IMG/VR virus record: IMGVR_UViG_2850796239_000012
Length of the DNA stretch: 51,993 bases
Strand: one strand, 5' to 3'
From: a virus
Taxonomy: Duplodnaviria > Heunggongvirae > Uroviricota > Caudoviricetes
Position numbers and translations under genes: made by a program. Under the pieces are notes generated by a model. The model worked only from the letters and a program-made list of their open reading frames with translations. It was not told the origin of the DNA and did not search any database. Below are positions 17,905 to 20,486 of the stretch, piece after piece. Position 1 is the stretch's first letter. Each line of letters opens with the position of its first letter.

Positions 17905-19856
17905 TACGCAGGTCCTTTCAATTGCTGTACCGCCCTGGCATTTACAGCCCCCTGCTTGTCAGCGATCAGATTAGCCGCCTCCTGAGGGTTGTTAACTCCA
18001 TGAACATTTATAACAGTCTGCTGGTTAAGGTTGCCAGCGGCGGCCTGATACGCCAGCGGGCTGTTCCAGTTTGAATAACCTTCTTTGCGCGCCATCGACT
18101 GCATCAATGCTCCCATAGTCCGGGGATCTGTAAGATTCAATATTGCATTCGGTGATACTCCCATCCATTTCGCAACATCCTGTGCATACTTTTTCGGATC
18201 GTTGTTATCACCTGCCGGGGCCCAGGTACTGACAATATCCTGAATAGTCTGTAATGCCCGTCCGGTTGTTTTCCCGGTAAAGTAACGCATGAGCTGGTTT
18301 TTCATCGCCTCCCAGCCCTCAAGAGCTGATTCGAAAAACCGGAACCCTTTACCGCTCACCGGGCGAATATTCCCTGGATTGTTATTCCGATCGGCTAAAG
18401 TACGCTTCGTAGACTGCGCATGTTGTTCCGGCTCAGCACCTGGAATATCTGACTGAATATTTGCGCCTTTTACGGTATGAGGATTACGACCAAAATCGGT
18501 ATCAATGCCAAGCCAGCGCAATGAATCTCCAATATTTTGTTTCGTGTAATCCCAGGATGACTTCGCACTGGCACCAATATTTTCGCGATCAGAGTACAAA
18601 TACGCAGCATAAGCCATCCAGCCTTTTAACCACGGCGGGACCAGCAAACCTGATATTTTCCCGAAAGCCCCCAGAACCTTGGATACCCAGACACCCGCGA
18701 TGAATGTACCGAGGATTTCCAGTGCATTTTGCCAGCCGCCAACACCATCTTTTAGTTCCAGAAGGTGATCACGAAGCCAGGTGATCGCATCCTTCGCTTT
18801 ATCTATTGCTGGTTGCCATTTTTCCCAGTCGATAAGACTGTTACCGCCTTCTTTCCATGTTTTGTAGTCTTCCCACAAGAGACCGAGAGCCACGATCAGA
18901 CCGGTAATCAGCCCTATAGGTGACATCCAGAAAGTAGAGTTAAGTATCCGCATGGCGACAACCAGACCGCCGATAACCTCTATCAGGGTTTTCGTTTCGG
19001 CATCCAGTTTCCCCCACCACTCGATGATATCTCCGACACCATCGACTATCCGGAATGCACCCCGCCCGACTATCTCACCCAGCCAGAGGATCCCCTTTAT
19101 GACCTTTGTGATGGTGACTTCAATTTTGGGAAAATTTTCAATTATCTTTTTGCGCAGGTTATCAATCTGCCCCGCCAATCCGTCCGCAAGATTCGATCCG
19201 ATTTTGTCCCGCGCCATCCCGGCCATTTCACCGAGCGATTTCAGCGAGGTCATAAACCGGTTTGACGATAAGGCAGCCTGATCGGCATTAAATCCGATCG
19301 CTTTCACCATTTCTGAATACTGAGCGCTGAACTGCCCCACTCCGCGACGCATAGCCATAAGGGTATTTTCGTCAATGCCCAGCATCTGCGCATACTGGTT
19401 AGCCCGGTAATACGGCATACCGCTGAGCTTCTGGCCTACACCAGTAAAAATAGCGGCCATGTCACGCATGTTACCGCTGGCATCACGGGTCTGTACGCCC
19501 AGGCGATTCAGAAAGCCTTCTGCACCGGGATTGTTACGAATAAACCGGGAGAGGCTTTCCAGAGAAGATCGCGCAGCGTCCACGCTGCCGCCAACCTGCG
19601 AAACCGCATAGCCAATAGACTGAATTCCCTGGACTGTCGCGCCGGTGCGCTGTGACGCCCAGTAAAGATTATCCAGACCGGAGGCGATCTTAGCCGTGAA
19701 GGCCACCACGGACAGCGCAGCTCCTTCAACAGCCAGCCCCATTTTGATGACATTTGCAGTTGTACCGGCGAGGACAGAACCGAACTTTTTCGCTCCTGCA
19801 TCATCCACACTGAAGCCAAGCGAGACGAGGAAATCTTTAATAGTCTCGGCGTTCAT
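17904..19856 (-). CDS. Tail tape measure protein
   Basis: 650 aa, Ala/Gly-rich with hydrophobic central segments; sits after the chaperone gene. Confidence 0.8.
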   Translation of the reverse strand: MNAETIKDFLVSLGFSVDDAGAKKFGSVLAGTTANVIKMGLAVEGAALSVVAFTAKIASGLDNLYWASQRTGATVQGIQSIGYAVSQVGGSVDAARSSLESLSRFIRNNPGAEGFLNRLGVQTRDASGNMRDMAAIFTGVGQKLSGMPYYRANQYAQMLGIDENTLMAMRRGVGQFSAQYSEMVKAIGFNADQAALSSNRFMTSLKSLGEMAGMARDKIGSNLADGLAGQIDNLRKKIIENFPKIEVTITKVIKGILWLGEIVGRGAFRIVDGVGDIIEWWGKLDAETKTLIEVIGGLVVAMRILNSTFWMSPIGLITGLIVALGLLWEDYKTWKEGGNSLIDWEKWQPAIDKAKDAITWLRDHLLELKDGVGGWQNALEILGTFIAGVWVSKVLGAFGKISGLLVPPWLKGWMAYAAYLYSDRENIGASAKSSWDYTKQNIGDSLRWLGIDTDFGRNPHTVKGANIQSDIPGAEPEQHAQSTKRTLADRNNNPGNIRPVSGKGFRFFESALEGWEAMKNQLMRYFTGKTTGRALQTIQDIVSTWAPAGDNNDPKKYAQDVAKWMGVSPNAILNLTDPRTMGALMQSMARKEGYSNWNSPLAYQAAAGNLNQQTVINVHGVNNPQEAANLIADKQGAVNARAVQQLKGPA

Positions 19857-20033
19857 TATCCTCTCTCCATTTTTCTACCCGGACATCGTTGTCCTCGCAC
19901 ATATCAAGGTAGTCATTAAGAAGCGCGATGCGACAGAGATCTACCGCACCACTGTTAAGATCTTTCTGGTCAATATGGAAGGCAAGCGCCGGACGAAGAA
20001 TAAAATCTTCACCACCCGGCAGGCTATTGAAGG

Positions 20034-20486
20034 TTATTCCGCTGGCGGGATGGGCGTCTCTTTGGTAGGGTGTCCTTGCAAAAAATTTCCTAGCGAATCG
20101 GCGACCACCCGCGCCACCAGCTGCAGCATGACCAGCAGGTCAATATCATCAAACATCAGTTCGCCCTGGGTAAATACCGGCACCCATCCGTCCATATGAC
20201 GCCGCGACACCACCGCAAGACAGGGATGAATAATTGCACTGGTGTCATCTTCGGTCAGGGAAGACAGTTCCTCAGCGATACGCGGGAGCATGGTTTCAAA
20301 CACCGGTTTTAACTGCTCGAATTTCACGGTGTCTATTTTGCCGTCAGCAGGCAAACGGGAGCGAATGCTCCCGAAATCTGACATCATTCCTGCCAGCACC
20401 GGCAGAAGTTTGCGGGTCACTTTCAGCTGGTCAAAAACGCTGAGTTTTGCCGCGCGATATTTCACGCCTTTGATTTCGAATTCCAT
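20034..20486 (-). CDS. Tail assembly chaperone (gpG-like)
   Basis: 150 aa between tube and tape measure genes; -1 frame is open from near its 3' end to just inside the tape measure gene. Confidence 0.6.
   Translation of the reverse strand: MEFEIKGVKYRAAKLSVFDQLKVTRKLLPVLAGMMSDFGSIRSRLPADGKIDTVKFEQLKPVFETMLPRIAEELSSLTEDDTSAIIHPCLAVVSRRHMDGWVPVFTQGELMFDDIDLLVMLQLVARVVADSLGNFLQGHPTKETPIPPAE
20079..20085 (-). other. Candidate -1 programmed frameshift site of the tail chaperone (T TTT TTG)
   Basis: Zero-frame codons aaT TTT TTG 14 codons before the chaperone stop; the -1 frame then stays open for ~80 codons to a TAA at ~19837. Confidence 0.45.

Follow-up and report, generated by a model that had tools for sequence, protein, structure and literature searches.

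A putative -1 frameshift site in the tail module of a prophage was examined in the IMG/VR virus record IMGVR_UViG_2850796239_000012, a stretch of 51,993 nt that is referred to, as a whole, as the window. The tail genes around the site are all encoded on the minus strand, in the order sheath (22086..20941), tube (20930..20490), tail assembly chaperone (20486..20034), and tape measure (19856..17904). The chaperone gene, labeled G for its zero frame, encodes 150 aa and stops at TAA 20036..20034. Close to its 3' end the zero frame reads ...GAT TCG CTA GGA AAT TTT TTG CAA..., which from CTA onward translates as L-G-N-F-L136-Q. A preliminary description of this DNA had placed a T TTT TTG heptamer 14 codons before the chaperone stop, and this was borne out by the sequence: T_TTT_TTG lies at 20085..20079 and is followed by exactly 14 sense codons after TTG before the G stop. 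What had been overlooked was a second canonical heptamer, A_AAT_TTT (20088..20082), overlapping the first, such that the slippery run A_AAT_TTT_TTG (20079..20088) holds two overlapping zero-frame heptamers of the X_XXY_YYZ type, as read directly from the sequence. No other in-phase heptamers occur in the overlap of G with the -1 frame in the window.

The -1 frame, labeled T, is open over 20139..19837. Counted from the G at 20079 that would be read a second time, the extension (19837..20079, minus strand) runs for 80 codons to TAA at 19839..19837, 17–19 nt inside the tape measure gene, whose ATG is at 19856; here too the earlier account, of about 80 open codons ending just within that gene, was accurate. 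A -1 shift at the run is predicted to give a G-T fusion of 216 aa (19837..20486). The N-terminal part of T overlaps the tail of G over 20034..20078, where the zero frame has 14 codons and TAA, and we call this G tail dispensable. The extension had also been described as lacking a start codon, which holds for GTG and TTG and in so far as no start is conserved, but the window has a single late ATG, about 60 codons past the slip and 21 codons before the end. As a test of chance within the window, the open -1 frame was uninformative: among 111 mechanically called open reading frames (ORFs), 34 are followed in the -1 frame by at least 60 open codons beyond the stop, in most cases because that frame holds the next gene. 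Within the window alone the G/-1 pattern is not statistically remarkable, and it is the comparison with related sequences that sets it apart from chance.

For this comparison, 121 related loci with a complete T frame, corresponding to 71 unique sequences, were taken from phage records, IMG/VR, and GTDB genomes and labeled with L-numbers (L004, L109, L115, and so on). Hosts were Escherichia, Salmonella, Klebsiella, Pantoea, Photorhabdus, Arsenophonus, and Izhakiella, together with two distant lineages of metagenome-assembled genomes; codon and stop statistics were calculated on 34 sequences with pairwise identities below 93%. An in-phase T-run was kept in all 121 loci, 12–18 codons before the G stop. 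The longer string G_GGA_AAT_TTT_TTG was found in 59 of the 71 unique sequences, with the in-phase T-run retained in all others, and A_AAT_TTT_TTG was present in every close relative (91/91). Distant members carried T_TTT_TTT or T_TTT_TTC variants or, in L119–121, only T4.

Synonymous codon choice was frozen only at the site itself, where GGA was used in 30 of 34 sequences, AAT in 31 of 31, TTT in 34 of 34, and TTG in 27 of 27. Conserved residues adjoining the site were encoded by varied codons, with Asp as GAT in 17 sequences and GAC in 15, Ser by six codons, and Leu by five. The two heptamers were also found to covary. Four of the 34 sequences are without A_AAT_TTT, three of them having T_TTT_TTT and the fourth, L119, only a U_UUU tetramer; T_TTT_TTG occurred in none of these four, compared with 27 of the 30 that have A_AAT_TTT. 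The use of T_TTT_TTT or a bare U_UUU where A_AAT_TTT is missing fits a rule of A-site tRNA re-pairing, and A_AAU_UUU would on these grounds be at least co-responsible for the shift in the window. L109 and L115 have a stop in the -1 frame directly 5' of the T-run, which places the shift in those sequences necessarily on the T-run.

Coding signal in the extension was confined to the T frame. Between the G stop and the T stop this frame contained no stop codons in the 34 sequences, versus 181 and 151 in the other two frames, and the ratio of nonsynonymous to synonymous polymorphism (pN/pS) between the G stop and the tape measure start was 0.39 in the -1 frame versus 1.32 and 1.41 in the others. 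Nucleotide diversity by T codon position was 0.31/0.25/0.60. In the 15-codon G/T overlap pN/pS was 0.58 for the -1 frame versus 1.14 for the zero frame; constraint on the -1 frame within this overlap indicates that its translation begins upstream of the G stop. The conserved T residues, F-A-R-T-P-x-Q-R-D, start at the slip site. A lack of conservation in related phages, which the preliminary description had singled out as damaging to its proposal, was not seen: all related phages and prophages examined retain T as a conserved protein sequence, and only in the -1 frame is it under purifying selection. An extension in the +1 frame was considered separately and rejected, since most relatives have a stop in that frame only a few codons from the G stop. 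One Logan contig (L126; SRR23924998, 1895-1910) has T7 instead of T6 and carries G and T in one 213-aa ORF (P0001) with the predicted junction ...SLGNFFA...; this is either a homopolymer sequencing error or a natural mutant making GT only.

The identity of both parts was then addressed by profile and structure searches. G belongs to a tail assembly chaperone family by sequence profile, matching Pfam PF21822 Phage_TAC_15 (E 2.4e-30, 106 bits against a cutoff of 22) and PHROG 1688, "tail assembly chaperone" (E 1e-61). T matched Pfam PF21829 DUF6889 over fusion residues 174–211 with 43.9 bits, passing the curated gathering cutoff of 23.9, and phrog_4364 (E 3e-17). Scanned against Pfam at E <= 0.1, the 216-aa fusion matched only PF21822 and PF21829, and no lambda gpG/gpT or P2 gpE/E+E' family; as judged from these profiles, the pair appears to work like the lambda and P2 systems while lying outside their protein families. 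G and T were modelled separately with AlphaFold. The model of G was of moderate quality (predicted local distance difference test score, pLDDT, 69.7), with residues 136–150, past the slip site, modelled as disordered, and that of T comprised three helices (pLDDT 66). A fold search of T against BFVD gave a best E-value of 0.64 and no usable match, and no relatives of G turned up among PDB sequences in a profile search.

We interpret the locus as a G/GT-type tail assembly chaperone pair produced by programmed -1 ribosomal frameshifting, with a probability of roughly 0.85; that the shift is ribosomal we infer from the sequence comparisons. The match to gpG/gpGT-type chaperone pairs drawn in the preliminary description is supported by the gene order, the chaperone family matches, the identity of TTTTTTG with the P2 site, and the conserved T. 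Most ribosomes would make the 150-aa G, terminating at 20034, and a small fraction would slip back by one base on A_AAU_UUU_UUG (20088..20079) and read 80 codons in the -1 frame to give the 216-aa G-T ending at 19837. G-T frameshifting is general in long-tailed double-stranded DNA phages, and in the lambda model the partner of G is the tape measure protein and that of T the major tail protein, the shift frequency sets the ratio, and neither protein is present in virions (PMC5009743). If the pair behaves as lambda G/GT and P2 E/E+E' do, the tape measure protein would be coated by the G part common to both products, the tube protein would be brought in by the rare T part (DUF6889), letting the tail grow to its proper length, and both G and G-T would be expected to be absent from the virion. 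Expression from the insertion-damaged prophage is presumed, and the binding partners of G and T are extrapolated from lambda.

Several observations weigh against this interpretation. A downstream stimulatory structure, which the preliminary description had suggested looking for, was not detected by a single-sequence fold of the window (z -0.23), by 60-nt folds in 24 relatives (mean z +0.51), or by RNAalifold on 17 sequences (2 invariant pairs and no covariation); such a structure is unneeded in lambda or P2, but with none here the efficiency could be very low or rely on an unrecognised stimulator. In E. coli reporters without stimulators, UUUUUUG (0.118%) and AAAUUUU (0.070%) shift near the background of about 0.055% (PMC4066793 supplement). 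The lambda-like third heptamer, G_GGA_AAT, is found in 87 of 91 close relatives and is lost in the window, where CTA GGA replaces CTG GGA at the Leu132 codon (20089-20091, minus strand); this synonymous change is otherwise seen only in three identical IMG/VR contigs (L012–L014), and its effect is probably minor because the motif is weak in E. coli. The prophage is disrupted by insertion sequences (IS), which makes its current function doubtful. Finally, a search of the literature on this locus or its close relatives found no experiment.

The respective roles of the heptamers can be considered in light of E. coli rules (Sharma et al. 2014, PMC4066793), by which H_HHU_UUY motifs, including A_AAU_UUU and U_UUU_UUU/C, are among the best because the A-site tRNA re-pairs cognately, while U_UUU_UUG is poor; judged by them, A_AAU_UUU may matter no less than U_UUU_UUG. 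With an IS3 pseudoknot, the reporter values rose to 11.4% for AAAUUUU and 0.77% for UUUUUUG; GGGAAAU gave 0.069% without and 1.05% with this stimulator, and the lambda site GGGAAAG 0.277% and 43%, respectively (PMC4066793 supplement). All three motifs of this family are near background alone, and the absolute shift efficiency is not predictable. The predicted tryptic junction peptides would differ according to the site used: VVADSLGNFFAR would point to A_AAU_UUU or G_GGA_AAU as the shift site, or to an mRNA carrying an additional U, and VVADSLGNFLAR to U_UUU_UUG as the shift site. Upstream, a G-rich Shine-Dalgarno (SD)-like GGGTGG (~20100-20110, minus strand) lies 16–19 nt 5' of the T-run in most members, a long spacing, and anti-SD duplex energies of GGGUGG-type elements are -6 to -9 kcal/mol. 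This element could act as an upstream frameshift stimulator; it is inseparable from the conserved Ala-Arg-Val-Val (ARVV) codons with which it coincides.

The source of the window is an insertion-riddled Shigella/E. coli prophage, and the question of present use is distinct from that of what the site is. A prophage of E. coli FDAARGOS_944 matches the region at 100% identity. Compared with that copy the window prophage as a whole is 99.9% identical and has extra IS insertions at 4916-7670, 14322-15235, 22133-23048, and 36480-37809. The third of these has taken the place of the final 14 codons of the neck terminator gene (23616..23026, PF23961), about 2 kb upstream of G. The claim that this part of the tail module is not degraded therefore stands for the G, T, and tape measure ORFs, which are intact, and fails for the prophage around them, with four insertions and one gene end removed. 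We consider it somewhat probable that the site persists in this genome only as an inert relic, in that a functional phage would have passed it on and the shift would no longer be used or selected. Besides the insertions, the window allele is without the G_GGA_AAT heptamer, and damage is present even in the FDAARGOS_944 copy, where there is a frameshifted pseudogene and tail fibre genes are truncated. Against this stand the intact G, T, and tape measure ORFs and the presence of the same T allele (89.5% nt identity) in Citrobacter phage Omnitron, a phage with a deposited genome, although the intactness of the three ORFs may simply reflect that decay of the prophage is recent. The findings do not establish the prophage as functional.

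The same fusion could also be obtained by transcriptional slippage, whereby RNA polymerase adds an extra U in the U6 run and a minority of mRNAs become in-frame. Sharma et al. 2014 (PMC4066793) note an avoidance of U7 and A7 runs whatever the phase, for which slippage may be the reason. Here a homopolymeric T-run of 6–7 is the universally conserved element across the family, and the T7 contig L126 encodes the exact in-frame fusion, so that one additional U suffices. E. coli RNA polymerase needs runs of about 8–9 or more for efficient slippage, which agrees with the review PMC5009743. T6 is short by this standard, and the distant members L119–121 have only T4. Moreover, conservation extends beyond the T-run to its phase, the flanking GGA AAT, and the terminal G, and the covariation of A_AAT_TTT with T_TTT_TTG fits tRNA re-pairing rules and not polymerase slippage. 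The identical P2 site is treated as a ribosomal shift in the literature (PMC3091744). On this evidence transcriptional slippage is unlikely, and ribosomal frameshifting is preferred.

More improbable still is that T is an independent small gene (the "DUF6889 family protein" of RefSeq), translated from its own, possibly non-canonical, start or by re-initiation after the G stop with no frameshift: public annotation does hold stand-alone DUF6889 proteins of 46–75 aa and an ATG at T codon 28 or 54 is common among relatives, but start codons in the T frame are not conserved across the 34 relatives, L115 has none at all, the sole start in the T frames of the window, L005, and L095 is an ATG at codon 60 of ~80, the RefSeq start in the identical sequence is ATC while other records start at the window's CTG Leu codon, purifying selection on the -1 frame is already seen ahead of the G stop, in a stretch free of constraint on the zero frame, the conserved residues begin at the slip site, and in L109 and L115 stops directly 5' of the T-run bracket the -1 ORF.

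By heptamer and tail type the closest known system is P2 E/E+E', and in function and anatomy the pair is of the known G/GT kind. P2 E/E+E' shifts at TTTTTTG, as experimentally established, without a downstream structure (PMC3091744). The P2 pair shares with the present locus a -1 shift on T_TTT_TTG towards the 3' end of a small gene flanked by the tube and tape measure genes, an extension without its own start, no downstream RNA structure, and a sheath-tube context in a contractile-tail coliphage. It differs in having no detectable sequence homology and other product sizes (91 and 142 aa, versus 150 and 216 aa here); furthermore, the T-run is here preceded by A_AA (G_GG in relatives), which creates overlapping heptamers. 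Lambda G/GT likewise consists of two chaperones with a common N-terminus, made by a -1 shift near the end of G and just upstream of the tape measure gene, but its site is G_GGA_AAG, read by lysyl-tRNA, its tail is non-contractile, and no sequence similarity was found; the lambda-like G_GGA_AAU is present as the third overlapping heptamer in relatives of the window. The HK97 tail assembly chaperone (PDB 2ob9), a solved chaperone, is also listed among the closest known systems.

A true homologue is found in Klebsiella phage Mulock (CPT_Mulock_014/015, GenBank MN098327), with ~66% nt identity over the region. It shares the gene order and has the run GGGAAATTTTTTG, and differs in having another T allele and G-tail length. 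Its two products were deposited as a "tape measure chaperone" and a joined "tape measure chaperone frameshift product", by annotation only, and the frameshift is not discussed in the Mulock genome announcement. The shift had thus already been annotated in a homologue, and this kind of frameshift is not new.

Comparison of individual segments revealed that T has a history of its own. Relative to vB_EcoM-606R2, which represents the common E. coli type, identity was 98.7% for sheath, 98.6% for tube, 97.3% for G(1-136), and 97.3% for tape measure, while the T segment (19837-20078) was not alignable except for its last 39 nt. Relative to Citrobacter phage Omnitron the pattern was reversed, with 89.5% identity for the T segment and about 69–73% for sheath, tube, G(1-136), and tape measure. 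Most relatives match G residues 1–136 at 99% and diverge exactly at the slip site, and a 901-nt query spanning the T region was covered to at least 80% in only 21 of 367 matching E. coli genomes. The T-coding segment thus has, on sequence comparison, the character of a recombination or mosaic cassette whose 5' junction coincides with the slip site, and because relatives diverge exactly there, the invariant slip run appears to serve as the recombination junction.

These features can be combined, tentatively and as a possibility rather than a probability, into a single scheme. The 13-nt G_GGA_AAU_UUU_UUG would comprise three tandem overlapping heptamers that offer successive chances to shift without a structure, the window being a natural two-heptamer variant, and the T segment of ~200 nt would be an independently exchangeable cassette with the invariant slip site as its 5' junction, its alleles swapped while tube, G, and tape measure remain unchanged. 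If this were true, the function of DUF6889 would be that of the T domain of the chaperone in contractile-tail phages whose sheath and tube match Pfam DUF3383 and KPP10_Orf10. Apart from this scheme, the locus adds to frameshifting biology another stimulator-free site of the P2 type, in an unusual layout of overlapping heptamers.

The most fitting reading of DUF6889 is as the T domain of Phage_TAC_15 chaperones, which gives this family a probable role; a literature search for DUF6889 found no paper mentioning it. In RefSeq, the FDAARGOS_944 prophage is annotated with a "phage tail assembly chaperone" and a separate 30-aa "DUF6889 family protein" (NZ_CP065613 I6H01_RS26650, WP_374704659.1). The latter ORF spans 19837-19929 of the window (minus strand) and starts at 19929 on an ATC codon, which looks like an annotation pipeline placing a conserved peptide that has no start. 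Other T-only ORFs in the databases are 46–75 aa in length with ragged N-termini, and some are named "lytic transglycosylase". The analysis is of value mainly for annotation, in that a widespread enterobacterial prophage family has T recorded as a stand-alone protein or as a "lytic transglycosylase", with start sites that are arbitrary and in some cases non-canonical. Related phages include Salmonella SEN34 (Brunovirus), Yersinia YP3, Escherichia vB_EcoM-606R2, Klebsiella GZ7 and Mulock, and Hafnia yong1.

Of the neighboring tail genes, the tape measure gene encodes 650 aa with a C-terminal transglycosylase-like region, matching PHROG 2276 (E 1e-252) and, weakly, Pfam PhageMin_Tail, and is named "lytic transglycosylase catalytic" in RefSeq. 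The tube gene encodes 146 aa (Pfam PF11681, E 1.7e-60; DUF3277 in RefSeq), and the sheath gene 381 aa (Pfam PF11863 DUF3383, E 1.8e-100; PHROG 205 tail sheath, E 1.6e-135).

The insertions in the prophage could be assigned to three IS families, and the IS load is typical of Shigella-like genomes. The element at 4916-7670 is of the IS66 family, and a partial second copy of its left end is found at 1-758. The two IS5-family elements (14322-15235 and 22133-23048) are inverted copies of ~0.92 kb, 99.8% identical, with DUF4096 and DDE_Tnp_1 domains in two overlapping ORFs; an in-phase X_XXY_YYZ heptamer in the overlap suggests that this ORF pair has a -1 frameshift of its own. The IS3-family element (36480-37809) is ~1.33 kb long and has an rve domain. 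Beside the prophage, an ipaH-type type III secretion system effector (2849-4674, plus strand) is split into two overlapping ORFs, one with the LRR_TTSS part (2849-4234) and one with the NEL E3 ligase part (3808-4674). Its counterpart in FDAARGOS_944 is an intact 608-aa IpaHb, and the window copy is probably a frameshifted pseudogene.

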